A stretch of 32,000 nucleotides of DNA, taken from positions 3,750,001 through 3,782,000 of the forward strand of contig CP060262.1 of NCBI GenBank assembly GCA_022646745.1, in the 5' to 3' direction. This document shows positions 736 through 29,481 of this stretch, piece by piece. Source of the DNA: Planctomycetales bacterium (GTDB lineage Bacteria; 4484-113; JAFGCY01). The position numbers and the translations under genes are program-made. The stretch's first letter is position 1; every line of letters begins with the position of its first letter. The notes beneath the pieces are model-generated. The model was not told the DNA's origin and ran no database searches. It saw only the letters and a program-made list of their open reading frames with translations.

Positions 736-1479
736 CTACGGGCAGGTCCACTCGATACGACACTGATTCGGGCTGCTTAAATCGTAATACGGTTTGTCGT
801 CTTCCCACTCCGGATCACTATGAGCGTGACCAACAGCTTTGTACGAATTAATGACTTCGTCTTCCAGATATTTTTCTTCCCCACAAGTGAAATCGAGCGA
901 ACTGCTAATGGAATTCTTCCACAGCCTATCTTTTTCGTCCATAACATAAAACGTCACTTCATAAGGGAATGTCCTTCTGATACAGGGTGTTGAGGGGGTG
1001 CAGATTGCGCATGTGTATGCCTGCCCCGTGCTGAAAGGATCGTGCTTACTAGTTGTTTTGAACCAGGGATATGATCCATCAGTGGGCTTCGGAAGCAGTT
1101 TACCCACAGGGTTTTCTTTTGCATTGACGGGTATAAGCCTGATCTCTGTCAGCACATTATCAATCTGCCCGGAAGAATTCACTGTAAAACGGATTGAGTC
1201 CTTTAGTTCATTAAGTCTTGCCATGAATGCAAACCGGACAAGAACACTGCTGTCATCTTTCACCATAGGTATCACTTTTGCCTGTGGAGTGGATTTTGCA
1301 ATCAGTGTTTCCCTCTCATTGTTCGCATAGTGATGTATTATCACGTTGTAGTGCAAATCTCCGGAAAGTGAGGAATCAAGACCAGCATAATCATTGTCAT
1401 ACAGGTATCGGCAATGACTCATACCATTGTCCGAAGCGAACACTTGAAGTTTCTGATTTGGAATCGATACGATTGTCAT
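736..1479 (-). CDS. Hypothetical protein (247 aa), no recognisable domain
   Basis: ORF from the track. AAGGAG lies 7 nt upstream of the ATG (reverse complement of 1480-1495 = gagctAAGGAGaattg). It starts 16 nt after the stop of the TPR gene, so it is probably co-transcribed. I recognised no motif. Confidence 0.6.
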   Translation of the reverse strand: MTIVSIPNQKLQVFASDNGMSHCRYLYDNDYAGLDSSLSGDLHYNVIIHHYANNERETLIAKSTPQAKVIPMVKDDSSVLVRFAFMARLNELKDSIRFTVNSSGQIDNVLTEIRLIPVNAKENPVGKLLPKPTDGSYPWFKTTSKHDPFSTGQAYTCAICTPSTPCIRRTFPYEVTFYVMDEKDRLWKNSISSSLDFTCGEEKYLEDEVINSYKAVGHAHSDPEWEDDKPYYDLSSPNQCRIEWTCP

Positions 1480-1495
1480 GCAATTCTCCTTAGCT

Positions 1496-3223
1496 CTAAT
1501 ATATCGGAGACTCTTTATCCACGGAATTCCGCTGAGCCTGATTGACTTTTAAATCAGTGAGTTGTCTGTGAAAGTCTAGATCTACCGGTCTTCCCAGGGC
1601 CTCATACAGGGCATCAGCTCTGGCCTGGGAATCCTGCCTGCCATGTTCGTCTCCGGCCCGTTGATGAGCCATTGCCAGCATCACGATTGACCGGCCCTCG
1701 AAGATGTGCTCACCCAGTTCATTGAACAGCTCCGCAGATTGACGCAGTTCGTTGATTGCCAGTCCATGCCGCCTATCAGCTGACAATGCCCAGCCTCGTA
1801 CCTGCAGCAGGTAGGCAAACTCCGTAGGATGCTCCTCGCGATCACAACCTGCTCCCAGCAGCTGCAGTTCCTGCTGCGCTGCTTCGGCCTGACCTTCTTC
1901 CAGCAGCATTACTGCCAGATGTATTTTGACCTGATACATCATTCCCGGCAGGAGTCCCTGCTCCACCAGCCCGAGACATTCCGCATAGCGCGCACGGGCC
2001 AGCTCACGATTACCTGAAAGACGCTCTACGTTGCCAAGGCCTTCAAGAGCAATAATGGAGTTGTTAAACTCCCCCGATTTCCGAGCATGCTCCAGCACCG
2101 CAGTGTACTCGTCTCTCGCCAGCTCCGTTTTTCCCATATCCAACAGCAACTTGCCAAGATACTGACGTGCATTCGTTTCCAGACGCTTGTCCTTCAGGTG
2201 CAATGCGATTGCCAGGGACTGTTCGTACATCCGGCGCGCCTCTGTCAGTTGACCGCTGCGATGGCGCAGGATACCGATGTTTGCCAGGATGGTTGCTTCG
2301 CTGCCCCGCTCACCACATTGACGAAGATCCGCCATCGAACTATTGAATGCAATGATTGCTTCCTGGTTCAGACCAAGAGACATCAAAACGCTGCCTCTGT
2401 CGCCCTTCAGCTTCGCGAGCAACAGGACATCACTTTCCTGCTCAGCTTGCATGATTGCCTGTTGAAGATGTTCGAGTCCTTTTTGTGCGGCTCCTGTATA
2501 AAGCTCTTCGAATGCCTCCAACCTGCTCAGCCTTGCGCTTGTCTCACAGTGCTGAGTTGCCAGATTGCGCCACCGCTCCATTTCAGCTGAACGGCCATAC
2601 TCCAGGTGTCGTAGGGCCACCTCACAGGCAAGTCCATGTGAATTGAAGTCGTCGGAAAGGTCGGCATACATCTGCAGCATCGAAGTTGCGATTGCTGCGT
2701 TCTCTAGATGCAATCCCACTTTGCGCATCGTTGTGACTAGCTGTCCAAGATGTGCCTGACTGTAATGATCCAAATTGCCAGGAGCTATGAGTAGCTGTGG
2801 ATCACTCATCGCTAGCTCTTCCGCCAGCCCTCGTTCAATGCCAAGCAGTCCGGCCAGTTGCTCAGCATCCAGTTCTTCAAGGATTCCGTACTTCGCAATC
2901 AGACCGACCAGCTGAACTGGAGATGCATTTCCATCTCCAAGTTCCAGAATTGCAGGACCCTTCCGTTTTTGTGCCGTGTCCATCCTGCATTCATTAATAC
3001 ATAGGCTGAAATCCAAGTCAACATACGGCAACAGAGAAGTGACAGATTTCTCGACCCATGAGCCATTGCTTTGAGTACATGCACTAACGTGACCCAGGTC
3101 AACTTCCTGAGCGGGCCGGCTCCTTTTCACCGGCACCGCAGTTGGTTCAGTCAGCAACCGGCTGACCGGTTGCAACTTGGCAACAGTGTTTCCCGTACTA
3201 GTGGTAATCGTTAATTTGTGCAT
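1496..3223 (-). CDS. Tetratricopeptide-repeat (TPR) protein, 575 aa, with an unassigned N-terminal ~250 aa
   Basis: The C-terminal ~300 aa consist of repeated ~40-aa helical units with a TPR-like consensus. Examples are ATILANIGILRHRSGQLTEARRMYEQSLAI, ARQYLGKLLLDMGKTELARDEYTAVLEHA and ALEGLGNVERLSGNRELARARYAECLGL. It is the longest ORF over this span, and all plus-strand ORFs here are short shadows. Confidence 0.75.
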   Translation of the reverse strand: MHKLTITTSTGNTVAKLQPVSRLLTEPTAVPVKRSRPAQEVDLGHVSACTQSNGSWVEKSVTSLLPYVDLDFSLCINECRMDTAQKRKGPAILELGDGNASPVQLVGLIAKYGILEELDAEQLAGLLGIERGLAEELAMSDPQLLIAPGNLDHYSQAHLGQLVTTMRKVGLHLENAAIATSMLQMYADLSDDFNSHGLACEVALRHLEYGRSAEMERWRNLATQHCETSARLSRLEAFEELYTGAAQKGLEHLQQAIMQAEQESDVLLLAKLKGDRGSVLMSLGLNQEAIIAFNSSMADLRQCGERGSEATILANIGILRHRSGQLTEARRMYEQSLAIALHLKDKRLETNARQYLGKLLLDMGKTELARDEYTAVLEHARKSGEFNNSIIALEGLGNVERLSGNRELARARYAECLGLVEQGLLPGMMYQVKIHLAVMLLEEGQAEAAQQELQLLGAGCDREEHPTEFAYLLQVRGWALSADRRHGLAINELRQSAELFNELGEHIFEGRSIVMLAMAHQRAGDEHGRQDSQARADALYEALGRPVDLDFHRQLTDLKVNQAQRNSVDKESPIY

Positions 3224-3468: not shown

Positions 3469-4233
3469 ATGCAAGCAATCAAAATCACGCCTGGTGAAGC
3501 ACTGAATGAAGCCGAGGCACAGGAGTTCATACGGCACATTGACAACCGTATCCAGGCGCACCTTGAATCAGTCCTCGAAAGCGAGATGTGGCGTACCCTG
3601 TCAGATCCGAAAACTGACCCAGCTCTGGCGAGGGCCATTTTCCGTGAGGTGCACCTGGAGATCTACTCCTACCAGCCGCATGTCACGGAAGCCAGCTACC
3701 TGTTAATCAGCAAGATGCCCAAGCACGACACCGAACTTATTCGCAACCTGACGCTGCAGGAACTTGACGAGGTTGACCACGGCGAGATGGCGTTGAAGGA
3801 CTACATCGCGCTTGGCGGCGATGAAGAGTTCGCACGAAGTATCCGTCGTACGCCCGCCGCCCTGGCCTTTGATGGCATGTGGTGGGAATTCGCGCGTTCT
3901 GAAAACCCCTTCTGTTACATGGGGGCAATGTATCCCTTTGAGGGGCTTACTCCGGAGTTCAGTGAACGGGCCAAGCGGATCATGCTCGGCACTGGTGCAC
4001 AGGAGGACGAACTGGGGTTTGTAGTGTTCCACGCAGAAGAGGATATCGCGCATGCTGCGCTTGTGCGTAACACCATCAAGCGCGTGGTGATGACATACCC
4101 CGGGGCCGCAGAGCATATCGAATACGGCCTGGAATGCTTCATGCAGTTGTTCCCCCTGCCTATTTGGCAGTTTGCCTATGAACGTGCGCTGGCAATGGCA
4201 GGTCCCGGGCATTCTGCTGCCAGCGCATCCTGA
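3469..4233 (+). CDS. Heme-oxygenase-like fold, iron-containing redox enzyme family protein (putative diiron oxidase/oxygenase; PqqC/TenA/CADD-like)
   Basis: 254-aa ORF with GGAG 7 nt upstream of the ATG. It is all-helical in character and carries DEVDH (ExxH) and HAEEDIAH (HxxxDxxH). These are the type of carboxylate/His pairs that ligate the metal site in heme-oxygenase-like diiron enzymes. The assignment is from motif memory only. Confidence 0.55.
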   Translation: MQAIKITPGEALNEAEAQEFIRHIDNRIQAHLESVLESEMWRTLSDPKTDPALARAIFREVHLEIYSYQPHVTEASYLLISKMPKHDTELIRNLTLQELDEVDHGEMALKDYIALGGDEEFARSIRRTPAALAFDGMWWEFARSENPFCYMGAMYPFEGLTPEFSERAKRIMLGTGAQEDELGFVVFHAEEDIAHAALVRNTIKRVVMTYPGAAEHIEYGLECFMQLFPLPIWQFAYERALAMAGPGHSAASAS

Positions 4234-4264
4234 TCAGTTCTACATCAATGACGAGGAGAGACAC

Positions 4265-4879
4265 ATGTATACAGTAGAACTTGTCACATCAGAAGCACAG
4301 AAATCCGAAGTCTTCCGGCAACGTTACAGGATCTATGTTGAGGAAATGGGTCGACATCAGGTCCATGCGGATCATGTCAGACGCGAAATCAGGGAACCGA
4401 TGGATGAACAAGGTGCAATCTTTGCTGCCTACACTGGAAATGAGTTGTTAGGGTCCCTGCGAGTGAATCTTGCTCGAGATGGTGCACTGGAATGTCCTGA
4501 ACTTTATGACTTTGATCAGTTTGGGAGTGCGTTTCCAGACAAGGTCTCCTTACTCACCAAACTGATGGTGGAACGGAATCACAGATCTACAGTCGTCTTC
4601 AATCTTCTGGCAATCTCTGCATATGAATATGGCCTGAGAAGCGGAATAACACATAACTTCATCAACTGCAACGATCACCTCGTTCGCAGTTTCGAACGTC
4701 TGGGGCACAGGACTTACAAGGGAAAAGTATCTCACCCAGAATATGGCAACGTTACTCCAATGGTGTGTATCGTACATGATCGCGAATACATGGAACAAAT
4801 GCGATCTCCATTGTTGCGAACCCTGGATATGTTCCTTCAGAAGGCTGCACAAACACAACTTAGTCGGGATGCCGTCTGA
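4265..4879 (+). CDS. GNAT-fold N-acyl amino acid synthase / autoinducer-synthase-like acyltransferase (FeeM / exosortase-associated acyltransferase type)
   Basis: The track ORF 4172..4879 overlaps the upstream gene. The internal ATG at 4265 has GAGGAG 6 nt upstream and begins MYTVELVTSEAQKSEVFRQRYRIYVEEMG. This is the F-R-x-R-Y-x-V-Y-x-E-E block typical of N-acyl amino acid synthases and LuxI-like enzymes, followed by G.LRV and a conserved C-terminal core. Confidence 0.6.
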   Translation: MYTVELVTSEAQKSEVFRQRYRIYVEEMGRHQVHADHVRREIREPMDEQGAIFAAYTGNELLGSLRVNLARDGALECPELYDFDQFGSAFPDKVSLLTKLMVERNHRSTVVFNLLAISAYEYGLRSGITHNFINCNDHLVRSFERLGHRTYKGKVSHPEYGNVTPMVCIVHDREYMEQMRSPLLRTLDMFLQKAAQTQLSRDAV

Positions 4880-5187
4880 TGCTCGAAACATGCAAACAGG
4901 CTTCGAACGAGGAACAGCTCAATGAACCTTGTTCGAATCTCCCCTCAATCACACCTGCAGAACTTGAGCTCTGCAATGGACAGACGGGCAAGCCTGCCTG
5001 GATTGCGTTTGAAGGTTACGTCTACGACCTGAGTGCCAGCAGACTGTGGCCAAACGGCAGGCATATGCTGCGCATTTATGCAGGACGAGACCTGACGGGA
5101 CTAATGCAAGATGCTCCGCACCGAAGCGAAATACTAAGGAGGTTCCCCTGCATCGGAAGGCTGGCAACCCTATCTACCAAGAATTGA
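4879..5187 (+). CDS. Cytochrome b5-like heme/steroid-binding domain protein
   Basis: The ATG overlaps the upstream TGA (TGATG, 1-nt overlap), implying translational coupling. The sequence ELELCNGQTGKPAWIAFEGYVYDLSASRLWPNGRHMLRIYAGRDLTGLMQDAPHRSEILRRFPCIGRL fits the bacterial cyt-b5/MAPR-like pattern (NG..G.PA.IA..G.VYD.S.S..W..G.H....AG.DLT.....APH....L...P.IG.L). Confidence 0.7.
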   Translation: MLETCKQASNEEQLNEPCSNLPSITPAELELCNGQTGKPAWIAFEGYVYDLSASRLWPNGRHMLRIYAGRDLTGLMQDAPHRSEILRRFPCIGRLATLSTKN

Positions 5188-5319
5188 TTGGCAATCAATT
5201 GCAACTTACTGAAAGTCATTGCTGGAATGTTTCCACTTAATATACAAGGCACGGTGACATTCAGCTTCCTATTTCGGTAACCCATTTCATTGTAACCAAT
5301 TATGTCAAGGAGCATAAGT

Positions 5320-7356
5320 ATGAGAAGTTACCAACATTCTTTCCTGATTGTCATTATTGCAATATCAATTGCAACTTTGAGTTCGTGCGGTAGCGGAGGA
5401 GCTCAGACAACAAATCCACCCAAGCCCCAGGCGGATACAGCGCCACCTTTGTGGATCAGCTCCAGCAATCTATCGGAGTTGGAAAGGACAGAGGACACCA
5501 TATCGCTCAGTTGGGAACCTGCCAGCGATACCGTTGACAGTCCCGACAGAATCAGTTACAAGGTTTACTACGGTATCGACAGTGAACCTTTCGACGATGA
5601 ATTTCAGGAAACTGGAAAAGGTGCAACAAGCAAAGTCGTCAGTGGACTCAAGGCAGGCACAAAGTACTTCTTTGGTATCAGACCAGTCGACAGCAGTGGC
5701 AACGTCGGGCCGAACTCAACAGTGATTAGTGCATCCACCCTGGCAATCGAATCAGAAGATTCTGAGCCTCCCACCTGGCCAGGATCACCGGGCATTGCAG
5801 ACGTTGAACCGGGAGATGGCAAAGCGGTTCTCACCTGGAATGCGGCAAGTGATAACGTAACATCAGGAAACCGTATTAAATACCGAGTTTTTGTTTCACA
5901 GAGTGATAAGCCTTTTGCATCATCTCCTTTAGAAACTTCTGCAGGAGTTACTACCTGGACGGCCACCAATCTTGAAAATGATGTTACTTACTATTTTTGT
6001 GTGAGAGCCGGGGATGAGGCTGGCAACTGGGAAACAAACACAACAGTGTTGAGTAGCACTCCTACCGGAAAGCCCGTGATTGACGGGGATAGCACTCCTC
6101 CGAGTTGGTCTTCAAATCCAGGCGTGGAAAATCTTGAGCCGCTTGATTCTGCTGTCAAAGTATCATGGAAGAGTGCTTCGGATGATGTTGATTCTTCTGG
6201 CTCACTCGTCTACCGCGTATACTTTGGCAATGACAGCGACCCTTTTGATGATGAATATGTGGAATCACTCCCTGGAGCAAAGTTTCTTACTGTAACCGGG
6301 CTTGACAATGAAGTGGAATACTTCTTTGCTGTTCGAGCGCGTGATACTTCGGGAAACTGGGATGACAATCAACATGTCGTTAGTGCAATTCCGGTCTCAT
6401 CTTCCCAGGGCGATGTTGAGCCACCTGTATGGCAGGGTGCTCCTGGCGTTCAGCTTGTGGAAGCTGGAGATGAGCACATCATGGTGTACTGGAACCCCGC
6501 ACTGGACAATCATGACAATCCTGAAGACATCTGGTATCGGGTTTATTACGATACAGATCCTAATCCCTTTGACCAGGAAATGACTGTAGTCACAGATCTC
6601 AACGTTTTTGAAAAGGGTCTAGGCGGCCTGTCAAATGGAACCACGTACTACATCGGAGTGCGAACCAGGGACCAATCTGGCAACTGGGATGACAATGAAG
6701 TTGTGATGTCATGTACTCCACAGATCAGCCAGTATGAAACCACCCTTACCATTATTGATATCTGTGCTGATGAGTTGACGGACCTGGACCTCTGGGGCAT
6801 CGATGACGAAGATGAGGTGTTTCTGCAGGTTTACTGGCAAGTCAATGGTGAACTTCAGGGCACAATGCGCTGGCCACCTGAAGGTCACTGGAGTTTGCAA
6901 CGTGATGAGTCAGCTTCAAATCACTGTGTCGCTCAGCAGACAACTGACCTTTCGAGAAAGTTCATGGTTCCTAGAAATGGCGAGCTTGTCATCGGAGTAC
7001 AGATTATAGAAGAGGATGACTGGGGCGTGAATGAGTGGAATCAAGTGGTTGGACAACTGATAAAGTTCGTGGATATTCCAGCCCCCTGGCTGGCTACTAT
7101 GAATGACGTGATCAATGCTGCAACAGTGCTAGGTATAGATCTTCATAACAGCAATGATGTCATTGGATCCTTTCAGTTCACCGTCACGAATAATGAAGGC
7201 CACAATGATGCCGTGATTTTTGACGAGAATTTGCATCAGTGTACACTAGCTGAGTGGAAGAGATGGGAAGCTGGTGTCCAGGAGATCCATTACAGGTTTA
7301 ATGGAGACGGATCCATGTACCCAACCTGGTGGAGAATCCAGCAAACTTCTAACTAG
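5320..7356 (+). CDS. Secreted lipoprotein with four fibronectin type III repeats and an unassigned ~215-aa C-terminal domain
   Basis: AAGGAG lies 7 nt upstream of the ATG at 5320 (the track start at 5302 lacks an RBS). There is a signal peptide with lipobox LSSC. Four ~105-aa repeats share PP.W...(S/T)W..ASD.V......Y(R/K)VY.....PFD......Y(F/Y)F.VRA.D.SGNW(D/E).N, an FN3-like pattern. The C-terminal domain (ISQYETTLTIIDICADEL...WWRIQQTSN) is not recognised. Confidence 0.8.
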   Translation: MRSYQHSFLIVIIAISIATLSSCGSGGAQTTNPPKPQADTAPPLWISSSNLSELERTEDTISLSWEPASDTVDSPDRISYKVYYGIDSEPFDDEFQETGKGATSKVVSGLKAGTKYFFGIRPVDSSGNVGPNSTVISASTLAIESEDSEPPTWPGSPGIADVEPGDGKAVLTWNAASDNVTSGNRIKYRVFVSQSDKPFASSPLETSAGVTTWTATNLENDVTYYFCVRAGDEAGNWETNTTVLSSTPTGKPVIDGDSTPPSWSSNPGVENLEPLDSAVKVSWKSASDDVDSSGSLVYRVYFGNDSDPFDDEYVESLPGAKFLTVTGLDNEVEYFFAVRARDTSGNWDDNQHVVSAIPVSSSQGDVEPPVWQGAPGVQLVEAGDEHIMVYWNPALDNHDNPEDIWYRVYYDTDPNPFDQEMTVVTDLNVFEKGLGGLSNGTTYYIGVRTRDQSGNWDDNEVVMSCTPQISQYETTLTIIDICADELTDLDLWGIDDEDEVFLQVYWQVNGELQGTMRWPPEGHWSLQRDESASNHCVAQQTTDLSRKFMVPRNGELVIGVQIIEEDDWGVNEWNQVVGQLIKFVDIPAPWLATMNDVINAATVLGIDLHNSNDVIGSFQFTVTNNEGHNDAVIFDENLHQCTLAEWKRWEAGVQEIHYRFNGDGSMYPTWWRIQQTSN

Positions 7357-7383
7357 CAAATCAGAACTATCTCTGAGCGAGCG

Positions 7384-7418
7384 GGAGGACCAGCAGTTGC
7401 TGGTCCTCCTTTGTTGTT
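7384..7418 (+). terminator. Rho-independent terminator after the FN3 lipoprotein gene
   Basis: An 11-bp perfect GC-rich stem, GGAGGACCAGC (7384-7394) / GCTGGTCCTCC (7399-7409), with loop AGTT. It is followed by TTTGTTGTT (7410-7418) and starts 28 nt after the TAG stop. It lies between convergent genes. Confidence 0.75.
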
Positions 7419-7454: not shown

Positions 7455-8429
7455 TCACTTCAGCCAAACAAGTCCATGCGCCTCGACTTTCAATGATCCA
7501 TTTGCCGTGAAATCCTCTGTACCAGGCAACGGAACTGATATGGTGTACTGCACCATGTGGGCATCCTCCCTGGCAGGGATCGTGAAACTAAACTCGGTAA
7601 TGCCTGTCTTGGCAACCGGGTAATTGAAGTAGCCTGGATCCAGAGGTTCATATCTATCGGCGTTTGCTTCCACAGTGTTGTCCTTATCAAGTTCAGGTAT
7701 ATATACCTTTACATTGTATCCAGCCCGCAGTTCCACGGGTAAGTCAAAGAGGTATTCATGTTCGATTCGAGCACTGACCTGTACGTTGCCATTCTCCAGC
7801 TGCTTATGCAAGTTAAGAATCGTGATTGGTTTTATCTTGTCTGACTGGTCCAGCACCTTGCGCAATACACCTGCGGTGTTTTCATCTATGGTTATACGGG
7901 TGATTACCTTGCCATCCTCGTTCAAAAGATAGCTTGACGGAATGAACGGAGCAAGCCTGTTCAGGGACTGCTTCACTTCCGGTTGTGATCCCATGTAAAG
8001 CACCGGATAGGCTATTCGATTGTCATCCAACTTGCTGATCAGCCCTGCAAGGTAGTCCAGGTCATCCTTGGAAACAGAGATCAGCTGGAAATCCCCACGA
8101 TGTGAAAACTGCTCATCAATGCCAATCAAGTCCGGCAACTGCCGGGTACAGGGTGCTCACCAGCTGGCTGTGAAGTTCAGCAGCGTCCATTTGCCCTGCA
8201 GGGAATCCTGGGTGAGAACTTCTCTTGAAGAAGCATCCATCCCGGTGAAATCCGGGAGTCGCAATCCAGGCGAAGGTGGGTAATTCGCTTTCAGCTTGCC
8301 ATTGAAGCTTGCCAGTTCAACCGGCAGAGGCTTTACAGGGGGATCCTGCTGGGGAAAGTAGCAGGACAGGCTGAATCCTGACAACACAAGCACTGCAACA
8401 GTGGCAATCCGGATTGTCAAGTGTTTCAT
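7455..8429 (-). CDS. Thioredoxin-fold thiol:disulfide oxidoreductase (TlpA/ResA-like) with in-frame UGA read as selenocysteine (U-A-P-C redox motif). Has a signal peptide and an extra ~150-aa C-terminal beta-rich domain.
   Basis: Track ORFs 8157..8558 and 7455..8138 are in the same frame and are separated only by TGA (8157-8159) plus 6 sense codons. The joined reading is GKWTLLNFTASW-U-APCTRQLPDLIGIDEQFSHRGDFQLISVS...YPVLYMG...IPSSYLLNEDGKVITRI. This is the canonical TlpA/ResA layout (G K . . L . N F W A . W C . P C), with TGA exactly at the first Cys of CxxC. The start is chosen at ATG 8429, with GGAG 6 nt upstream, giving MKHLTIRIATVAVLVLSGFSLSC (signal peptide, possible lipobox). TGA is used as a true stop by at least five neighbouring genes. 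Confidence 0.65.
8132..8145 (-). promoter_or_regulatory. Candidate bacterial SECIS hairpin (CCGGC-AGUU-GCCGG) 11 nt downstream of the in-frame UGA
   Basis: On the mRNA strand: UGA GCACCCUGUAC CCGGCAGUUGCCGG. This is a 5-bp all-GC/CG stem with a 4-nt loop, AGUU, that contains G and U. The stem begins after exactly 11 nt, which is the spacing reported as required for the minimal E. coli fdhF SECIS. The stem is short for a SECIS, hence the moderate confidence. Confidence 0.4.
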
Positions 8430-8688
8430 TTCACTCTCCTGCAGCTTCATACTTGTACATGGATCATTCATACCAAGTTCCAGCGCTGACGCTTCCAATG
8501 CCTGGTGCATCCCACTCGCCCGGTCCGACGGACCCCATTCGTAAATCGCCGGCTGCATTTGCCCGGCGATCTGCGAATGAACTTACAAACAGTCTGACTC
8601 GGACTCAATCATCTCCTCGCCTGTCTCAGGAGCCTTGATGATGCTGAGTGATGTATACATGCTTCAAACATTCAGCTATTGAGTTGTA

Positions 8689-11600
8689 TTAATTCGTAAC
8701 GGGATTGCCAGCCCATATACCACTGTTCCAATCCCAGTCATTCCATGCCTTGTCACTGTACCGTCGTGATTGGATTGCAAACCAGATTGTTCCTGATGGA
8801 AAATCGTTCTTAGGGATTGTAATCTGGCTGTTAGATGTAAATCCGCCTGTGTCAATCCAATCGCTCGAGTAAATATCTGGTGTAATGAAGCCTACGTAAT
8901 AAAACAGATGAAATGTACATCCATCCTTTGGATTTGGCCTGTCAAACGAAATGGTCCAGGAACTTCCGTCATCCGTGACAGTTACATTCGTACAACGATC
9001 CGGCGGCGAAGCCCAGCCGCGTGCCTGAGAGCTCTCGCCACTGTCTCCTCCGGCATTTGTAGCTTTGATCGTATAGTAGTAGTTGACCCCGTCAGAATCG
9101 GGATCCCTCGTGTAGCTACTTAGAGACGGGGTTGCAATCAAGTCTCCAAGAACACCTGCTGTGTCGGATTCGTAGACTTTATAGTTCGTTGCACCTGGTA
9201 CATCGTCCCAATCAATATCGATCGTATGACTTTGCGTGCCCTTTGTAGCTGTGACATTCACTGGGATGTCCGGAGGAACCACGATGTAGGTCCCCAGGAA
9301 TGACCCCACTGTCCTGTCAGAATCATCAATGCTGAAGCTGCGCTCCGCTGGTGAAAAGGTCCACCCTGATTTTGCGGGAGTTACCGTATAGCTCCCGTTC
9401 GGCAGACCGTCACGGATCCAGTAACCACTCCCGTTAGTCTGAACGGATGCATGGCCTCCAGTGAAGGACATCGTCACTCCTGACAACGGTGTTGTACCGT
9501 CGTCTTCGTATACGTATCCCTCTGCCGAATGGAGAAGCACCTCCTGTGCCCCCAGGAATGACCCTACTGTCCTGTCAGAACCATCAATGCTGAAGCTGCG
9601 CTCCGCTGGTGAAAAGGTCCACCCTGATTTTGCGGGAGTTACGGTGTAGCTTCCGTTAGACAGGCCGTCACGGAGCCAGTATCCACTTCCGTTCGTCTGA
9701 ACGGATGCATGGCCTCCAGTGAAGGACATCGTCACTCCTGACAACGGTGTTGTACCGTCGTCTTCGTATACGTATCCCTCTGCCGAATGGAGAATCACCT
9801 CCTGTGCGCCCAGGAATGACCCTACTGTCCTGTCAGAACCATCAATGCTGAAGCTGCGCTCCGCTGGTGAAAAGGTCCACCCTGATTTTGCGGGAGTTAC
9901 GGTGTAGCTTCCGTTAGACAGGCCGTCACGGAGCCAGTATCCACTTCCGTTCGTCTGAACGGATGCATGGCCTCCAGTGAAGGACATCGTCACTCCTGAC
10001 AACGGTGTTGTACCGTCGTCTTCGTATACGTATCCCTCTGCCGAATGGAGAATCACCTCCTGTGCGCCCAGGAATGACCCTACTGTCCTGTCAGAACCAT
10101 CAATGCTGAAGCTGCGCTCCGCTGGTGAAAAGGTCCACCCTGATTTTGCGGGAGTTACGGTGTAGCTTCCGTTAGACAGGCCGTCACGGAGCCAGTATCC
10201 ACTTCCGTTCGTCTGAACGGATGCATGGCCTCCAGTGAAGGACATCGTCACTCCTGACAACGGTGTTGTACCGTCGTCTTCGTATACGTATCCCTCCGCA
10301 ACAAATGTTGTTGGCTCATCCACGAACTCCCAATATTCAATGTGTTGCAGAGGAATCACATTGAAACACTTCTCATACTCGAACTCCAACTCGAACAACT
10401 CAAAATCGAATCCAGCACAAACATCAGTTGCCCAACTCAGTTCAGCGTTACCCTCCAATGGAGGATATGACAATTCACAATCCAGCTGAGTGAAGGGCTT
10501 CACAGAAAAATTGGGGCCTACCTTCCATACTCTGGCCTGCAGTTCAATGATCAAATATAATTGAACGAAGCCTTCTGCAGTTGCAACTATCGTCAATGGA
10601 TGATAATTGAAACTCGAGGTCACATCTGCCGAACTTACCCACGCTGGTTGCCTGCCACTGCGCCAATCAGCGCCAATGCTAAAACTACTTGTAGCATCGA
10701 ATCCGGTTGTAGCCTCAGCCTGTACCTGGCCATTGACCGTAGCACCAACATATAAGTTCAGGTCTAGATCACCAAACACTGGACCTAAACTCCAGGGGAC
10801 AGGAGGAGGAGAAGGTATTTCAATGGGTTCAGGCGAGTACTCACCTTGAATATCTACATCCGCATTGATATCTAAGTCAAGACTCACCTCACCAGCTGCT
10901 GACATTTCAAGTTCATATGGCACACCGAGAAATTTATCCACCCGGCAATACACATCAGGAGTTATCTCGAGCCGGGCATTACTCAAATAAATACTTAAGA
11001 ACTGATCTTCATACAATGATGTATCAGAAAAGTCTATTACAAGTGGGTCATTTGTCATCGACTCTCTGATCTTTGCAAAATCTTCCACCCTTACAGGCGA
11101 AATCCTGGAAACACCCTTGCCATTACCAAATACATTATTGCCTCTAAGGGGAAGCACTAGATCCCAATAGCCATCATTAATCACTTTGTTAACATCGACT
11201 GAAGACCCGCGAAACCTGAGAGAGTTGCTGTCAAGAATCTCGACTTCCTCTACGTCTACTATGAATCCATTTTCACTTGATCCCGTGCTGCCACCTCCAA
11301 ACACAATACTTTCCTCTGTGATGGCCTCATTTGAGCCTTCTAGTTCAACGTAGTACCAGCCGTTTGTGTAGCGATCGAACAAGTTTCCACTGTCCGGTCC
11401 AAGGAGTATTGCCTTTCCTGTAAGCTTTATTATGTAGTCTGTGTTACTTTCTCTTTGAATTCGTCCCTTCGAATCTATTGACATAGCACGATACTTATCG
11501 TAACCCGGCTGATTCAACTCATAGTCGATTTCCAGTGCTGGGTCATCCTTTAGAACATCACTTCTGTCAACAGTCTCTACAACCGTCCAAGTTTCAGAAC

Positions 11601-12192
11601 CATCCGCCATTGTGCCTTCAATTCGATAACTTCCTATAAAATTCTTAAAGTGAACCCCAATCGGAGTAACATCAGAAATATTTACTTCACCATTACCATC
11701 ACCGTCTGCTACCCTTGCACTAGACCAGTTTGGGTCCCCTATCTTGGCATTAAAATACACAGCAATGCGTGTGAGGTCAGCTACGTTTACTTCACCATTC
11801 AGGTCATAATCTCCAATATTTTCATATGTCCAACTAATTCTGTAATCTTGGTTGCCGGGCTGGTCACGCCATATATGCAGATCTGAGATCGCATTGACAG
11901 ATTTTTGTGATACATACCGATCAGTGCTATTCTCTCGCAGCACGGCAATTAGAGCTGATTTCAGCTCATGCATTAAATCGTCATCAAACGATTCAGTAGG
12001 GGTGAACTCCTCAATCTCACGTATAGCATCGTCCAAGATAATACCCATTTCTCCCGTATGCTGGTCTTCCAATTCTGCTGAGTGCAATGTATCCTGAGAT
12101 ATATTATTTGCTGCACCGCTTCCAAGACCACCGCATCCCGCTGTCATGCAAACTGAAATCATCATTGCAAAAAAAGATAGTTTAATCTTCAT
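8689..12192 (-). CDS. Giant cell-surface lipoprotein: dockerin-like Ca-binding repeats, a large unassigned beta-rich region, four tandem CarboxypepD_reg-like (prealbumin-fold) domains, and C-terminal FN3-like domains
   Basis: AAGGAG lies 6 nt upstream of the ATG at 12192, giving MKIKLSFFAMMISVCMTAGCGG (signal peptide plus lipobox). The track start at 12258 adds 22 unlikely residues. Dockerin-type EF-hand pairs are GDYDLNGEVNVADLTRIAVYF and DGDGNGEVNISDVTPIGVHF. The 4 x 86-aa repeat is AEGYVYEDDGTTPLSGVTMSFTGG..VQTNGSGYW.RDGL.NGSYTVTPAKSGWTFSP. An FN3-like segment reads PVNVTATKGTQSHTIDIDWDDVPGATNYKVYES...YYYTIKATNAGG. Confidence 0.8.
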   Translation of the reverse strand: MKIKLSFFAMMISVCMTAGCGGLGSGAANNISQDTLHSAELEDQHTGEMGIILDDAIREIEEFTPTESFDDDLMHELKSALIAVLRENSTDRYVSQKSVNAISDLHIWRDQPGNQDYRISWTYENIGDYDLNGEVNVADLTRIAVYFNAKIGDPNWSSARVADGDGNGEVNISDVTPIGVHFKNFIGSYRIEGTMADGSETWTVVETVDRSDVLKDDPALEIDYELNQPGYDKYRAMSIDSKGRIQRESNTDYIIKLTGKAILLGPDSGNLFDRYTNGWYYVELEGSNEAITEESIVFGGGSTGSSENGFIVDVEEVEILDSNSLRFRGSSVDVNKVINDGYWDLVLPLRGNNVFGNGKGVSRISPVRVEDFAKIRESMTNDPLVIDFSDTSLYEDQFLSIYLSNARLEITPDVYCRVDKFLGVPYELEMSAAGEVSLDLDINADVDIQGEYSPEPIEIPSPPPVPWSLGPVFGDLDLNLYVGATVNGQVQAEATTGFDATSSFSIGADWRSGRQPAWVSSADVTSSFNYHPLTIVATAEGFVQLYLIIELQARVWKVGPNFSVKPFTQLDCELSYPPLEGNAELSWATDVCAGFDFELFELEFEYEKCFNVIPLQHIEYWEFVDEPTTFVAEGYVYEDDGTTPLSGVTMSFTGGHASVQTNGSGYWLRDGLSNGSYTVTPAKSGWTFSPAERSFSIDGSDRTVGSFLGAQEVILHSAEGYVYEDDGTTPLSGVTMSFTGGHASVQTNGSGYWLRDGLSNGSYTVTPAKSGWTFSPAERSFSIDGSDRTVGSFLGAQEVILHSAEGYVYEDDGTTPLSGVTMSFTGGHASVQTNGSGYWLRDGLSNGSYTVTPAKSGWTFSPAERSFSIDGSDRTVGSFLGAQEVLLHSAEGYVYEDDGTTPLSGVTMSFTGGHASVQTNGSGYWIRDGLPNGSYTVTPAKSGWTFSPAERSFSIDDSDRTVGSFLGTYIVVPPDIPVNVTATKGTQSHTIDIDWDDVPGATNYKVYESDTAGVLGDLIATPSLSSYTRDPDSDGVNYYYTIKATNAGGDSGESSQARGWASPPDRCTNVTVTDDGSSWTISFDRPNPKDGCTFHLFYYVGFITPDIYSSDWIDTGGFTSNSQITIPKNDFPSGTIWFAIQSRRYSDKAWNDWDWNSGIWAGNPVTN
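9293..10299. repeat. Tandem direct repeat, period 258 bp, ~3.9 copies, inside the surface-protein gene
   Basis: Four antisense ORFs in the track start exactly 258 nt apart (9461, 9719, 9977, 10235) with near-identical peptides. Direct comparison of units 9551-9808 and 9809-10066 shows only isolated mismatches (e.g. gtgccccc vs gtgcgccc, agaagcac vs agaatcac). The lowest-coordinate unit (9293-9550) is more diverged in its middle. 258 = 86 codons, so the frame is preserved. Confidence 0.9.
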
Positions 12193-12277
12193 CGATTTCT
12201 CCTTGATTAAGCAATGTAAATGACTTTTCTGGTTTATAGTGAGACAATTTAGACACAATTAGACCTTCTACTTGTTA

Positions 12278-15229
12278 TCAGTTGAATACTGAGTAGTGCA
12301 ATGTCCCACCTGTCCCTACATAAATTAGTCCTGGTTGCCCAGAGACATTGAGTAAAGCCGGGTTTGGATCTGCACCAGTGGCTTCGACAATGACTTCAGC
12401 TGTGTTCCATGCGGACCCTGTTTCATCTAGAGCAGATGCTAGTAGAATCGTCTTGTTAATGTAGAATGCTATGTGGGGCACGCCGGAAATCACAGCCAAG
12501 GAAGGATTGTTGCCTTCAGGGTGAACTTGAATGGATTCTCCCCATGAACTTCCATCCTGGTCCATGGCGCGAACATAAGATACTCTTCCGAATGAAATTG
12601 CTGGATTGCCAGCAACAACATCCAGACTTAGCCTTCCTCTGCCCTCGGTCGTTGCCAATTCAACTGGCTGCGGCCACCATGCAGTACCGTCCTTGTTACT
12701 GGCACTGGTATACATTAGTTTGTACTCAATTGGACCTTCCTGCCATGGCGTACGATAAACCCAGGCAATTGATGGAGAATTGTTAATGTATTCCAGTTGA
12801 TGCTGTATGTCTTGTACATCGTAACCTAGGTTAATACTTCCGCCTGCTTCCCGTCTGTATCGCAAACCATTATCAGGGTGATTGAGAGAAGCAGCTATTG
12901 ATCCATTTATCTCGGCTGCGACAATTCCATCAGGACAGATTGCTTCTGAACCTGTTAGAAAGTCCTGTGGACTGCTCCATGTATAACCATTCTCATCAGA
13001 ACTAAATACGCGTGAAATAGTCCAATACCAATCTGGGGATCCCTTTACTGCACTAAACATAATCTCCGGGGTACCATTGACTACTGCAATTGAAGATCCT
13101 CCCTCGACTCTCCAGCCACTCCCCGTTGGCCAGACTGCCACTGAAGTTGGCACACCCCAACTTATGCCAAATTGGTCCAGGGATCTGGAATACCTAATTG
13201 TCCTTCCATAAACGTATGTGAATGCTGGTTGATCATTCACTAAACATGCATCCCATACTCCATTAGGAATCTCTTCGGAGACTTGCCTGTGGGTCCAGAT
13301 TCCACAGACTATGTCATTAGTAGCTATGTCAGCTGCATCATTGTCATCTTTGGTTCGTACAGCAACTGTGTGTACTCTGCGCTCCATGAAAGTGTGACTT
13401 TGGAGTGGATAGATCCCACTATCATCAGCATTAAACGTCCCGTCATAATCCCAATCCCATTCATAAAGCGTAATTCGACCATCTGGATCATGTGATTCCG
13501 ATGCATCAAACTGTATTGTCAGCGGAGAGCTGCCTTCATGCAGGTTACTGGTCAATGCTGCTTCGGGGGGCAGATTGCCATAGACATTTACAGAAACATT
13601 GCTGGAACCTGTAGCGCCGTAGTTGTCAGTAACAACAAGTTCAACATCGTAGGTACCGGGTGACTGATAGTCATGCCACGGCGCTGGCCCACTGTCAAAC
13701 GTGATTACTCCGTCACCAAAGTCCCAGTCATACTGTGTTATCTGACCGTCCTCATCCGAACTTCCAGTAGCATCAAAAGCTACTCGTAGGATTGACTTGC
13801 CCTCCAGGGGATCAGCAGCAAGCTCAGCTGTAGGGGATCTGTTTGCCAGTATCGAAGTTTCAATAATGCCAATATCTGTACCGTCATTATTGTCTGTCAC
13901 ACGCACAGCCGGCAAGTAGGTCCCACTATCCGAGAATTCGTGGCTGATCATTGCTTCTGTTGATGTCTCATCAGCCTGGAAAGCACCATCAAAATCCCAA
14001 TCCCACTCATATAGAACAATCTCACCATCCAGATCTGAACTCAGGCTGGCATCAAGAACCACTGCAAGTGGCGGTTCACCACTGGTCAAAGAGGCTTCTA
14101 TCACTGCAATTGGCAAACTGTTGTGGAGTTCGACCTGAGTAGTTGCTTTATGTTGAAATCCGTCGTTATCAGTAACCCTGACAGCAGGGTGATACGTTCC
14201 AAAGTTTTCGTAAGTAGTATTTGTCAAGGGCTCAGTTGTTTCGAGGTCCACTTCAAATGTACCATCATGGTCCCAGTCCCATTCATACTTTACGATACTT
14301 CCACCAACGTCCATACTCCCACTAGCATCCAGCTCCACCTGAACTGGAATCACCTCATTGACAGGGGTGGCGACCAGGTTTGCAATTGGCTTGCCAATAC
14401 TTATTGAGAGAATGTTGGAGGCTTCTCCTTCTCCCTTAGTTTTTTCATCAAACGGAACAACGTAGTATTCATACTCACCTTCGATTGCTTGTTCTGTAGT
14501 TGTATATTCGTATACAACAGGTGCATCTGGATGGTCAGGGGGAGGTCGGCTGATAGTTAACAGCATTCCTGACTCCGCAACTAACTCAGCATCCTCTTGG
14601 CCAGGGCCTCGCCGATATAGACGGTATCCGTTTAAACCCTTCTTCCAGTTAATTGCAATAGGGGTTATATCCGCAGCGTTAATTTCTCCATTGCCATCAC
14701 CATCAATACGGGCTAATCGCCAATTGTATGCTCCAGAGTCCGCGGAAGGAGATTCCAATGCTGTATCACCACCAAAGTCAGAAGGATCACCTTTTGGCCA
14801 ATGTCCCACCCCATTTTTATCCTCAGACGAGAAGTACGAAACTCCAGTTCCCAGTTTCAAGCCTAGCGGCGTCAGGTCCGAAATGTTGACTTCACCATTC
14901 TGATCATAATCACCAGCAAGTCGTTCAACCCATGTAAGCTGCACACTGAATTCATTAGACCCAGGCAACAACTTTCCTTCGAGATTAAACACACGGCTTT
15001 CCTCGCCACTGGGAGGTGATGATGGCTCTCTCTCAGGATCCTTGCCTAACCGTTTCAACTCTTGAAGTAGCAGATTTTCCATGGCAACCTGAGGCAAATT
15101 GGTCATATTGTCATTGAGAGGGGTAAGTGAATGATCTGATTGAGTTGGAGAATTGCCTTGGCAGCTAAGCAACCCCAAGGTTGCAAGGAAAAGAATAGTC
15201 GCAATTGCAAAAAACTTCGATTTGATCAT
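12278..15229 (-). CDS. Cell-surface lipoprotein: dockerin-like repeats, four PKD domains, and a C-terminal BNR/Asp-box (sialidase-like beta-propeller) region
   Basis: Signal peptide plus lipobox: MIKSKFFAIATILFLATLGLLSCQG. Dockerin-like pairs are GDYDQNGEVNISDLTPLGL and DGDGNGEINAADITPIAINW. Four ~90-aa PKD-like units read (L)DAS.S.D.DG.I..YEWD(W/F)D.DG.F........H.(Y/F)...GTY...V.VTD(N/D). At least five Asp-box-like motifs are present: SLDQFGISWG, SSDENGYTWS, SNKDGTAWW, AMDQDGSSWG, ALDETGSAWN. Confidence 0.8.
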   Translation of the reverse strand: MIKSKFFAIATILFLATLGLLSCQGNSPTQSDHSLTPLNDNMTNLPQVAMENLLLQELKRLGKDPEREPSSPPSGEESRVFNLEGKLLPGSNEFSVQLTWVERLAGDYDQNGEVNISDLTPLGLKLGTGVSYFSSEDKNGVGHWPKGDPSDFGGDTALESPSADSGAYNWRLARIDGDGNGEINAADITPIAINWKKGLNGYRLYRRGPGQEDAELVAESGMLLTISRPPPDHPDAPVVYEYTTTEQAIEGEYEYYVVPFDEKTKGEGEASNILSISIGKPIANLVATPVNEVIPVQVELDASGSMDVGGSIVKYEWDWDHDGTFEVDLETTEPLTNTTYENFGTYHPAVRVTDNDGFQHKATTQVELHNSLPIAVIEASLTSGEPPLAVVLDASLSSDLDGEIVLYEWDWDFDGAFQADETSTEAMISHEFSDSGTYLPAVRVTDNNDGTDIGIIETSILANRSPTAELAADPLEGKSILRVAFDATGSSDEDGQITQYDWDFGDGVITFDSGPAPWHDYQSPGTYDVELVVTDNYGATGSSNVSVNVYGNLPPEAALTSNLHEGSSPLTIQFDASESHDPDGRITLYEWDWDYDGTFNADDSGIYPLQSHTFMERRVHTVAVRTKDDNDAADIATNDIVCGIWTHRQVSEEIPNGVWDACLVNDQPAFTYVYGRTIRYSRSLDQFGISWGVPTSVAVWPTGSGWRVEGGSSIAVVNGTPEIMFSAVKGSPDWYWTISRVFSSDENGYTWSSPQDFLTGSEAICPDGIVAAEINGSIAASLNHPDNGLRYRREAGGSINLGYDVQDIQHQLEYINNSPSIAWVYRTPWQEGPIEYKLMYTSASNKDGTAWWPQPVELATTEGRGRLSLDVVAGNPAISFGRVSYVRAMDQDGSSWGESIQVHPEGNNPSLAVISGVPHIAFYINKTILLASALDETGSAWNTAEVIVEATGADPNPALLNVSGQPGLIYVGTGGTLHYSVFN

Positions 15230-15400
15230 TTAAGTTAACCCACCTGACTCGTGTACTCTTATAAGCAATTGACAGCCTCTGAATAAGCGGAATGCATTCC
15301 CGCTACAAAACTGAACGCTTTAAGGGTGGGTAAAATGAGATAAATTTGATTAAATCAAAGTAAAATTTCCAGATTCATCGATCAAGATTCGGACATATTT

Positions 15401-17992: not shown

Positions 17993-18004
17993 TGCATCCT
18001 CAGA

Positions 18005-18610
18005 TTAGAGCAATTCCCTGACTGATTCCGGAATGTAAGCTGACAGAACCTTCTTCTTCATATACCTTATGCGCTGCGCAATTGCGTTTGGTGACAGGCC
18101 GACCACCCGTGCCACTTCATTAACGGACAAACCATGCGCATATCTGAGAACCAGGATGCGCAGGTTTCGTTCGTCGCCGACATTGGCACCGATCAGGTTG
18201 AGCAGATGGAGGAATCCGCGTTCCCTGAACTGCAGCTCCTCTGGACTGGCGTCCCTCGATACTGGCGTCCATCCGGCCTCTGATCGTTCCTCCAGTGAAA
18301 AAATGGGCTTCCGCTTGCCGCGGCCGGTCACCTTGTCCCTGGCAACACTCACGATGATTTTTGCAAGCAAGGTGCGGAAAGAATTCTGGCTGTAGCCCCT
18401 CAGGTGATTACGGATCACAGTGAAATCTTCCCTCATCAGTTTGATGATCAGTTCCTGGTAGACATCATCGAGGTCCGGTTCCGGTACCCCCAGCCTGTAG
18501 CAAACCGAAGACATGAAACCGCCGAAGATCTCATGGAACAGCTCCCAGCAGTCTTCTCCTGATACCAAACGCTCAAGGCATTCAATCTGTCTTGAATGGT
18601 CTTCAGTCAC
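18005..18610 (-). CDS. Sigma-70 family RNA polymerase sigma factor, ECF-like (regions 2 and 4 only)
   Basis: 201 aa. The region-2-like segment is DLDDVYQELIIKLMRE...FRTLLAKIIVSVARD. The region-4 helix-turn-helix is RNLRILVLRYAHGLSVNEVARVVGLSPNAIAQRIRYMKKKV. Size and two-domain layout fit ECF sigmas. It is the first gene of the co-directional cluster running to ~7455. Confidence 0.75.
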   Translation of the reverse strand: MTEDHSRQIECLERLVSGEDCWELFHEIFGGFMSSVCYRLGVPEPDLDDVYQELIIKLMREDFTVIRNHLRGYSQNSFRTLLAKIIVSVARDKVTGRGKRKPIFSLEERSEAGWTPVSRDASPEELQFRERGFLHLLNLIGANVGDERNLRILVLRYAHGLSVNEVARVVGLSPNAIAQRIRYMKKKVLSAYIPESVRELL

Positions 18611-29020: not shown

Positions 29021-29046
29021 CCACAGAGCCACAGAGGTCACAGAGG
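29019..29046 (+). repeat. Left inverted repeat, AACCACAGAGCCACAGAGGTCACAGAGG (three tandem CACAGAG(C/G) octamers)
   Basis: Read directly. Its first two bases are the last two bases of the methylase TAA stop. Confidence 0.9.
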
Positions 29047-29055
29047 AAAACGAAT

Positions 29056-29433
29056 ATGGAAGGAAACCGGGATCCGTTGACAGAACAGATAATCGGGGCT
29101 GCCATTGAAGTGCACCGTGCTGTCGGCCCCGGTTTACTTGAGTCAATCTATGAAGAGTGCATGTGCCGCGAACTTGCCATACAGGAACTGTCATTCCAGC
29201 GGCAGGTGCCAGTCCCGCTGATTTACAAGGGTGTACGCCTCGAAAACCCATTGCGGATGGACCTGGTAGTGGAAGACCAGGTTGTGCTTGAACTGAAAGC
29301 CGTTGACAAACTGTCCGGCCTGCATGAGGCTCAGCTATTGAGTTATCTGAAACTGGCTGGCAAGAGACGGGGCTTGTTGATGAATTTCAACTCCGAGAGA
29401 CTTGTGGATGGAGTAAAGAGGATGGTCCTTTGA
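29056..29433 (+). CDS. GxxExxY family protein (small PD-(D/E)XK nuclease-fold protein)
   Basis: 125 aa, with GAGG 9 nt upstream of the ATG. It contains the family signature G-L-L-E-S-I-Y (in VGPGLLESIYEECM) and a D...E-x-K core (RMDLVVEDQVVLELKAV). Confidence 0.85.
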   Translation: MEGNRDPLTEQIIGAAIEVHRAVGPGLLESIYEECMCRELAIQELSFQRQVPVPLIYKGVRLENPLRMDLVVEDQVVLELKAVDKLSGLHEAQLLSYLKLAGKRRGLLMNFNSERLVDGVKRMVL

Positions 29434-29454
29434 TAATGACGCTGAATTTGAATT

Positions 29455-29481
29455 CTCTGTGCCCTCTGTGGCTCTGTGGTT
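29455..29481 (-). repeat. Right inverted repeat (reverse complement AACCACAGAGCCACAGAGGGCACAGAG)
   Basis: The plus strand reads CTCTGTGCCCTCTGTGGCTCTGTGGTT. Its reverse complement differs from the left repeat at one position (G vs T). Confidence 0.9.

Follow-up and report, generated by a model that had tools for sequence, protein, structure and literature searches.

The window analysed here is a stretch of 32,000 nucleotides from a Planctomycetales bacterium (contig CP060262.1, positions 3,750,001 to 3,782,000), and the element of interest within it is a candidate selenoprotein gene on the minus strand, in which a single in-frame TGA is proposed to encode selenocysteine (Sec). A preliminary description of this DNA had noted two open reading frames (ORFs) in the same frame that are parted by one TGA, and both the sequence and its translation bear this out: between an ATG at 8429-8427 and a terminal TGA at 7457-7455 (directly followed on its 3' side by a second TGA), the sole internal stop in the minus-strand frame is the TGA at 8159-8157. 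Read through this codon, the translation runs MKHLT...GKWTLLNFTASW-[TGA]-APCTRQLPDL...VWLK. The features of the locus, in window coordinates, are as follows, where SECIS denotes a selenocysteine insertion sequence, and nt and aa denote nucleotides and amino acids:

7455-8429, minus strand: complete candidate selenoprotein gene of 324 codons plus stop, delimited from the sequence, its translation, Pfam matches and family alignments
8436-8440, minus strand: Shine-Dalgarno-like AGGAG, 6 nt 5' of the ATG at 8429, read from the sequence
8361-8429, minus strand: predicted signal peptide, residues 1-23 (MKHLTIRIATVAVLVLSGFSLS-C), with a basic n-region, a hydrophobic core and a lipobox-like S-L-S-C, recognised by eye
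7878-8267, minus strand: thioredoxin-fold (TlpA/ResA-like) domain, residues 55-184, from Pfam and the closest structures
8157-8159, minus strand: in-frame TGA, the proposed Sec codon, residue 91, at the nucleophilic position of U-A-P-C
8148-8150, minus strand: TGT for the resolving Cys, residue 94 of U-x-x-C, in a column that is invariant in alignments A1 and A3
8132-8145, minus strand: SECIS-like hairpin CCGGC-AGUU-GCCGG, starting 11 nt past the UGA, with a UGA-to-loop distance of 16 nt and -8.3 kcal/mol
7458-7832, minus strand: C-terminal all-beta domain, residues ~200-324, seven strands, beta-sandwich-like, with the motif [LIV]PG[TS]E
7383-7410, no strand assigned (plus in the scan, where a T run follows): 12-bp GC-rich hairpin between this gene and the convergent gene at 5302-7356

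The locus recurs at 99.9-100% identity in eight further ENA/Logan assemblies, which are independent short-read assemblies from different samples and several studies, and every one of which reads TGG TGA GCA CCC TGT; that is, where a TGC or TGT at 8157-8159 was looked for, 8 of 8 carry TGA. Automated annotation yields two fragments, as had been foreseen: NCBI and the other gene callers report two, the gene being split in all assemblies into a fragment of 90 or 133 aa and a fragment of 227 aa. The ATG at 8429 is picked as the start by the gene callers in 6 of the 8 assemblies (which gives the 90-aa upstream fragment), the TTG 'start' of the 227-aa fragment (8138-8136) falls within the loop of the hairpin, and NCBI names both fragments 'hypothetical protein'.

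The encoded protein and its relatives

When Cys is substituted for the TGA, residues 55-184 match three Pfam families above their cut-offs, namely AhpC-TSA (PF00578; 50.9 bits, cut-off 26), Redoxin (PF08534; 44.5 bits, cut-off 26.6) and Thioredoxin_8 (31.8 bits, cut-off 27), and the closest solved structures are of ResA and TlpA-type (4nmu, with E = 6.5e-10; 1st9; and 1jfu). The TGA is aligned with the first Cys of WCxPC in these structures, and its earlier placement at the nucleophilic first Cys of a WCxxC motif thus holds for both the Pfam-passing domain and the structure alignment. Invariant columns in alignments A1 and A3 are W90, U91, P93 and C94, together with P164 of an 'IP' motif, which we take to be the cis-Pro of the thioredoxin fold. 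The signal peptide that had been claimed is predicted, by eye, to be lipoprotein-like; relatives have AxA-type signal peptides at the same place. Judged from this signal, the protein is probably exported and lipid-anchored.

The preliminary description had also claimed an extra C-terminal domain of ~150 aa; such a domain is present, but its size comes to about 125 aa (residues ~200-324), and it is conserved across the family as an all-beta domain. AlphaFold2 was run on the exact C-terminal fragment (P0001) and six family sequences, and gives the domain seven beta-strands with block means of the predicted local distance difference test (pLDDT) of 73-92 over most of its length; the truncated thioredoxin part of P0001 was modelled poorly. 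A Foldseek search with the C-terminal domain returned generic beta-sandwich matches alone (ApaG, transglutaminase beta-barrels and GH2 Ig-like domains), all with a template modelling (TM) score of at most 0.46, and because the matches are of this kind no function can be read from the domain.

An exhaustive HMMER search with the 227-aa fragment against 1.84 billion representatives found 13 relatives in total. Nine of these are ~190-240 aa long and start just past the CxxC motif, as is expected for genes cut at the TGA; the other four are full length (292-352 aa) and carry FWA[ST]WC[GK]PC. On the contigs of five of the truncated relatives (L009, L010, L011, L013 and L014), the DNA reads in frame through ...G[KR]WVLL[ED][FL][WM]A[ST]W-TGA-GPC..QLP... 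in 5 of 5, and a sixth, P0007, has the same split layout, as seen from the gene layout of its contig rather than from its DNA. Further genes come from a DNA pattern scan of species-representative genomes, in which CAGTTG was fixed and the hairpin stems were left free. Of its 15 matches, at 13 loci, 8 are full family genes, which sit in three metagenome-assembled genomes (MAGs): 'bacterium UBP7 HKST-UBA01', 'bacterium AC1.30' and 'Planctomycetales bacterium Ww346'. The remaining seven lie outside ORFs and are rejected as chance matches (a rough estimate of the number expected by chance is ~17); one of the seven has a hairpin-like complement.

Altogether, the TGA occupies the same column in the window gene and in 13 further family genes. 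None of these 14 genes (termed here Sec-type) contains an additional stop or frameshift, and the 13 further ones represent about nine distinct lineages or paralogue groups, with ~21-33% full-length identity to the window protein. The TGA is flanked in all 14 genes by conserved blocks, G[KR]WVLLEFWA[ST]W on the 5' side and [G/A]PCxxQLP with the remainder of the fold on the 3' side, and they encode two-domain proteins of 279-347 aa with an N-terminal signal peptide, L010 excepted. In L010 (8417-10696), a same-frame N-terminal extension of ~520 aa with many hydrophobic stretches stands 5' of the thioredoxin domain in place of the signal peptide, which suggests, from its translated sequence, a membrane-integrated fusion form of the family.

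A further protein-database search covered the best 120 of 8000 candidates. The Cys-type homologues are single ORFs of 284-352 aa, and W-C-[G/K]-P-C is found in P0009, P0012, P0013 and P0015-P0019 as well as in tandem paralogues of L013, L014, L098 and L100. Hence two checks that had been proposed earlier have clear outcomes: the full-length relatives have W-C-[G/K]-P-C with Cys at the aligned column, in agreement with the ResA and TlpA-type structures; and the two halves do not occur as separate genes among homologues, inasmuch as Cys-type genes are single ORFs and Sec-type genes keep the TGA in frame. In L013, L014, L098 and L100 the Sec-type gene lies directly downstream of one or two Cys-type paralogues (L013:134-1895; L014:7901-10720; L098 ~5038-6800; L100 ~1292-3000); these tandem neighbours are duplicates within the two-domain family, one kind having Cys and the other Sec, and they also differ as to whether they have the hairpin.

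Scans of genome and metagenome collections with the single window protein gave zero matches; the source genome is no species representative, and close orthologues are rare. A metagenome scan with the family alignment, using patterns that require Cys, returned generic Cys-type TlpA-like genes only and did not extend the family; these genes served as a negative control for the hairpin.

The hairpin downstream of the TGA

The preliminary description had pointed to a GC-clamped hairpin 11 nt after the UGA with G and U in its loop, and this is what is found: CCGGC at 8145-8141, AGUU at 8140-8137 and GCCGG at 8136-8132. Published criteria for a bacterial SECIS (PMC13188914, Fig. 2 legend) specify a loop of 3-9 nt in which position 1 or 2 is G followed by G or U, a stem of 4-16 bp, a UGA-to-loop distance of 16-37 nt and a minimum free energy of at most -7.5 kcal/mol; the window hairpin lies within every one of these limits, with its 4-nt loop AGUU, its stem of 5 bp, 16 nt and -8.3 kcal/mol. 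Within the window, 8157-8159 is the only site at which a TGA between two long same-frame ORFs is combined with such a hairpin. Searches of the whole window against Rfam at gathering thresholds gave no match, and a permissive Rfam search of 8050-8250 gave a chance snoRNA match only and no family for the hairpin.

The hairpin, with a 5-bp stem and an AGUU loop 11 nt past the TGA, is present in all 14 Sec-type genes, and it is predicted independently by RNAalifold from the 14-sequence alignment A2. In the stem register, 5 of 5 pairs form in 12 of the 14 genes and 4 of 5 in the other two. The three inner pairs are almost invariant, and variation is concentrated in the two outer ones: pair 31:42 is GC in 6 genes, AU in 5 and CG in 3, and is broken in none of the 14, while pair 30:43 is GC in 6, CG in 4, GU in 3 and mismatched in 1. 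On its 3' side, pair 31:42 falls on the third (synonymous) position of a Pro codon, and this base tracks the first base of the codon for Arg, Gly or Glu that lies three codons further 5' (CGG with CCG, GGG or GAG with CCC, and AGG with CCU). Overall, 97.1% of stem cells are paired versus 80% in shuffled alignments, and the covariation score is 0.475 versus 0.123 (for each measure, 0 of 500 shuffles are as high); when the register is shifted, pairing goes down to 40-79%.

As a negative control, the same register was examined in 89 Cys-type W-C-x-P-C genes from the fetched loci. All five pairs form in 1 of these 89 genes (and four pairs in seven), as against 12 of the 14 Sec-type genes (Fisher p = 8e-13), and specificity persists (p = 2e-5) for the six Sec-type genes that were found by protein homology alone. 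The loop sequence AGTT likewise occurs in 6 of 6 of these protein-homology genes versus 1 of 89 Cys-type genes. In Sec-type genes, Q-L is always encoded by CAG TTG (TTG accounts for 13% of the Leu codons in the window); in the Cys-type members of the family the first of these two positions is E, K, N or L and the second is L or M, the codons, where the DNA was read, being GAG or GAA and then CTG or ATG.

Proposed selenocysteine insertion and the alternatives

It is very probable, on the strength of these sequence comparisons, that 8429-7455 constitutes a single gene, whose product is an exported TlpA/ResA-like thiol-disulfide oxidoreductase with Sec at its nucleophilic site. The conserved TGA, the Cys homologues and the covarying hairpin specific to TGA-containing genes all support the original proposal of a selenoprotein with a U-x-x-C motif and a SECIS-like hairpin. 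According to the mechanism envisaged, the 324-residue product would comprise a signal peptide, a thioredoxin fold and a C-terminal all-beta domain, and the UGA at 8159-8157 would encode Sec within the motif W-U-A-P-C. SelB-GTP carrying Sec-tRNA(Sec) would bind CCGGC-AGUU-GCCGG, 11 nt downstream within the coding sequence, where the loop presents G-U, and would deliver Sec to the UGA in the A site in place of release factor 2. The mature protein would then exchange electrons with extracytoplasmic disulfides via a selenenylsulfide (Sec91-Cys94) intermediate and, by analogy with ResA and TlpA-type proteins, which are re-reduced via a membrane pathway of the CcdA/DsbD type, would be returned to its reduced state by the same route. 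We infer, from the codon and its context, that Sec is inserted at UGA 8159-8157; the source genome would accordingly be expected to carry selA, selB, selC and selD, and the enzyme would act as a reductase or an isomerase.

Several observations weigh against this interpretation and temper it. In single-sequence folding the hairpin does form, but the region stands at an energy that is nothing unusual (z = 0.33), so that the support for the hairpin is comparative and not thermodynamic; the hairpin is short, having 5 bp and a tetraloop without the bulged U of Escherichia coli fdhF; and its stem complementarity arises partly from the codons of [R/G]-x-L-P. In one of the Cys-type paralogues (L014:8840-9736), a hairpin of 4 bp is possible if the register is shifted. 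Moreover, 8 of the 14 Sec-type genes were retrieved with the CAGTTG-fixed pattern, in which the stems were free, and their loop is thus present by construction. Finally, tRNA-Sec and sel genes were not found in the 32-kb window or in the fetched flanks of the relatives; a tRNA search and the Rfam scan of the window gave no tRNA match, and a scan of the related loci for other TGA-split genes with hairpins returned, among noise, family genes only. Absence of Sec machinery from the genome is nevertheless unlikely, because the TGA and the hairpin are conserved across about nine lineages or paralogue groups. There is also precedent in the phylum: the source record bears the label Planctomycetales, and several Planctomycetes have been reported to possess complete sets of Sec-insertion genes (PMC4807772).

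Among the alternatives, the one that survives best, although it is quite improbable, is that the UGA is read through by something other than Sec--a near-cognate Trp or Cys tRNA, a suppressor tRNA or Cys-tRNA(Sec)--with the hairpin serving, in a variant of this explanation that is included in the same assessment, as a general stimulator of read-through or as a means of regulating the ratio of short to long product. The inserted residue cannot be told from sequence alone, and the hairpin is unusually small, both of which leave room for such a mechanism. However, we know of no bacterial precedent for conserved non-Sec read-through at a CxxC nucleophile. The site, furthermore, is that of a redox-active Cys, the hallmark position of Sec/Cys exchange (PMC1794560), and the spacing and G-U loop of the hairpin fit the SelB-type SECIS model (PMC13188914).

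The gene might instead be a pseudogene, in which a nonsense mutation from TGC or TGT to TGA in an ordinary Cys-type TlpA-like gene has left two dead fragments. One transversion would be enough to produce it, its two pieces are what NCBI and other gene callers record under the label 'hypothetical protein', and close orthologues are very rare. Against this, the TGA is kept in 13 other genes from ~nine lineages or paralogue groups at ~21-33% identity, with no additional stop or frameshift; conservation of the active-site block is high on either side of the TGA; the covarying hairpin goes with the TGA; and the single stop sits on the one codon expected for Sec. Because 14 genes retain the TGA in frame with the frame otherwise intact, both a pseudogene and a pair of separate genes are excluded to a high degree, the former being highly improbable.

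An error of sequencing or assembly, or a genetic code in which TGA is a sense codon, has negligible probability. The source is a MAG on a very long contig, consistent with long-read data, but the TGA is agreed upon by the eight short-read assemblies. As to the code, the window has 16 large ORFs, of which 8 terminate in TGA (the candidate selenoprotein gene itself among them), and three Sec-type relatives themselves terminate in TGA; the five TGA gene ends listed in the preliminary description (4233, 4879, 5187, 23675 and 29433) are all correct and belong to these eight. Since half of the large ORFs end in this way, TGA is not reassigned, in keeping with the earlier judgement that a TGA-sense code was unlikely, and the eight assemblies and the TGA-ended ORFs together rule out both explanations.

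That there are two genuine genes, encoding a 90-aa secreted peptide and a 227-aa protein initiated at TTG 8138, is the reading given by ORF finders and deposited annotations, yet it can be dismissed as having next to no likelihood, given that the break would run through the middle of the active-site motif of a thioredoxin fold, that the TTG lies inside the hairpin loop without a ribosome-binding site, that the Cys-type homologues are single ORFs, and that the called start of the downstream fragment varies among relatives (ATG, TTG and other positions) whereas the TGA column is fixed.

Known systems, gene neighbourhood and wider meaning

Catalogues have included UxxC selenoproteins of TlpA-like, redoxin, Prx-like and thiol:disulfide-interchange types since 2004-2006, and current reviews list them as well (PMC1794560, Table 1; PMC13188914), so that the earlier remark that thioredoxin-like and Prx-like selenoproteins are known is correct, and the find, being of a known kind, is less novel than had been implied. 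With these catalogued types the window protein shares a thioredoxin-fold oxidoreductase domain, Sec in first position of the CxxC motif, Cys homologues, an intragenic SECIS just past the UGA, and the Pfam families PF00578 and PF08534. Compared with them by description, the window subfamily adds a conserved C-terminal all-beta domain of ~125 aa, is rare (13 in 1.84 billion) and has an almost invariant SECIS, GC-AGUU-GC. The NCBIfam families NF041054 (ResA-like WAxxUGC motif protein) and NF045694 (TsoB) are also redox selenoproteins with a ResA/DsbD-type thioredoxin fold; the window protein, however, scores far below their cut-offs (12.3 bits versus 300 and 16.7 versus 805, respectively) and has the motif W-U-x-P-C rather than WAxxUGC.

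ResA of Bacillus, TlpA of Bradyrhizobium, StoA and CcmG/DsbE are extracytoplasmic Cys-type thiol-disulfide reductases. They share with the window protein the fold, the W-C-x-P-C geometry and an N-terminal export or anchor signal, from which the window protein departs in having Sec for the nucleophilic Cys and an extra C-terminal domain. It is an orthologue of none of them, because its NCBIfam scores are far below the cut-offs for ResA (44.8 versus 170), TlpA (36.1 versus 230), StoA (35.2 versus 210) and DsbE (24.5 versus 123). Near the gene in the window there are no cytochrome c maturation or Sco genes.

The minimal SECIS of E. coli fdhF, as described in PMC8659212 (after Liu et al. 1998), consists of an upper stem-loop of 17 nt at a distance of 11 nt from the UGA, its key bases being U17, G23 and U24. 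By comparison, the window hairpin has the same 11-nt spacing (as had been pointed out earlier), G-U in a small apical loop and an intragenic location, but is 14 rather than 17 nt long, with a perfect 5-bp stem that lacks the bulged U, and with the tetraloop AGUU. A lower stem (CCUGC...GCAGG) occurs in some relatives only (L009, L011 and L014) and not in the window gene.

These comparisons allow a further proposal, which is tentative and which we hold with slightly less than even confidence: that the family constitutes a two-domain selenoprotein subfamily present in no catalogue yet (catalogued families having been compared by description), mostly Sec-type, with tandem Sec/Cys paralogues and a minimal SECIS, and that the SECIS of all its Sec-type genes is among the smallest that occur naturally in bacteria, with an invariant GC-AGUU-GC core exactly 11 nt past the UGA. 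Of the representatives that can be detected with the window protein, 9 are Sec-type versus 4 Cys-type, and the hosts are uncultured MAGs labelled Planctomycetales or unclassified bacterial MAGs. What is new is a rare subfamily with two domains, in which Sec-type members predominate among these representatives, Sec and Cys paralogues stand in tandem and the SECIS is compact and near-invariant, and whose members are present in databases only as 'hypothetical protein' fragments.

Turning to the neighbourhood, the 12-bp hairpin at 7383-7410 may also terminate the minus-strand candidate selenoprotein gene. Upstream of that gene, gene order in the window (12278-18610, minus strand) resembles that of the closest relative (L009:794-8317): both have, in this order, an ECF-sigma-like gene (43% identity), a protein of ~860 aa without a Pfam match (24% identity along the full length) and then secreted proteins of very large size that are rich in repeats, those of L009 containing PKD and PQQ beta-propeller domains. 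This synteny hints at a common extracytoplasmic module. Also upstream, the minus-strand ORF at 8689-12258, which encodes a secreted protein of 1189 aa, contains at 9292-10296 a 258-nt tandem repeat (3.9 copies, 98% identity) that specifies near-identical modules of ~86 aa. About three of the 258-nt units are missing from the short-read contig L001, either through assembly collapse or through real variation in copy number.

Two further regions of the window deserve mention. A gene of the PD-(D/E)XK_3 family (29056-29433; Pfam E = 1.3e-41), within the region 29019-29481, stands between the two arms of a 27-nt inverted repeat (29019-29045 and 29455-29481, 96% complementary) that is composed of CACAGAG heptads, and a third copy of the 16-mer of this repeat occurs at 27631-27646, where 0.07 copies are expected by chance; the region looks like a small inserted module. 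On the plus strand at 3469-5187, three tightly packed genes with overlapping adjacent ends encode a haem-oxygenase-like iron redox enzyme (Haem_oxygenas_2), a FeeM-like N-acyl amino acid synthase and a cytochrome b5-like protein, which may form a small operon for the biosynthesis of lipids or N-acyl amino acids.

The find leaves the general understanding of selenoproteins unchanged. More specifically, it corrects a mis-annotation, in that two 'hypothetical proteins' are one redox enzyme, and, because the same split error recurs in every relative found, the family has been invisible in protein databases. It is also a compact case of RNA-level selection within a coding sequence, as reflected both in the use of CAG TTG by Sec-type genes where Cys-type genes have E-L or E-M, and in a synonymous Pro position that covaries with the opposite arm of the stem. 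An exported two-domain TlpA-like selenoprotein is thereby added to lineages that have been little studied for selenium use and, if confirmed, would imply that these organisms decode Sec. If the tentative proposal of a distinct subfamily with a minimal SECIS is true as well, then the family would supply a minimal SECIS paired with its SelB, ready for use in engineering, as well as a clean setting in which to study Cys-to-Sec conversion after gene duplication.

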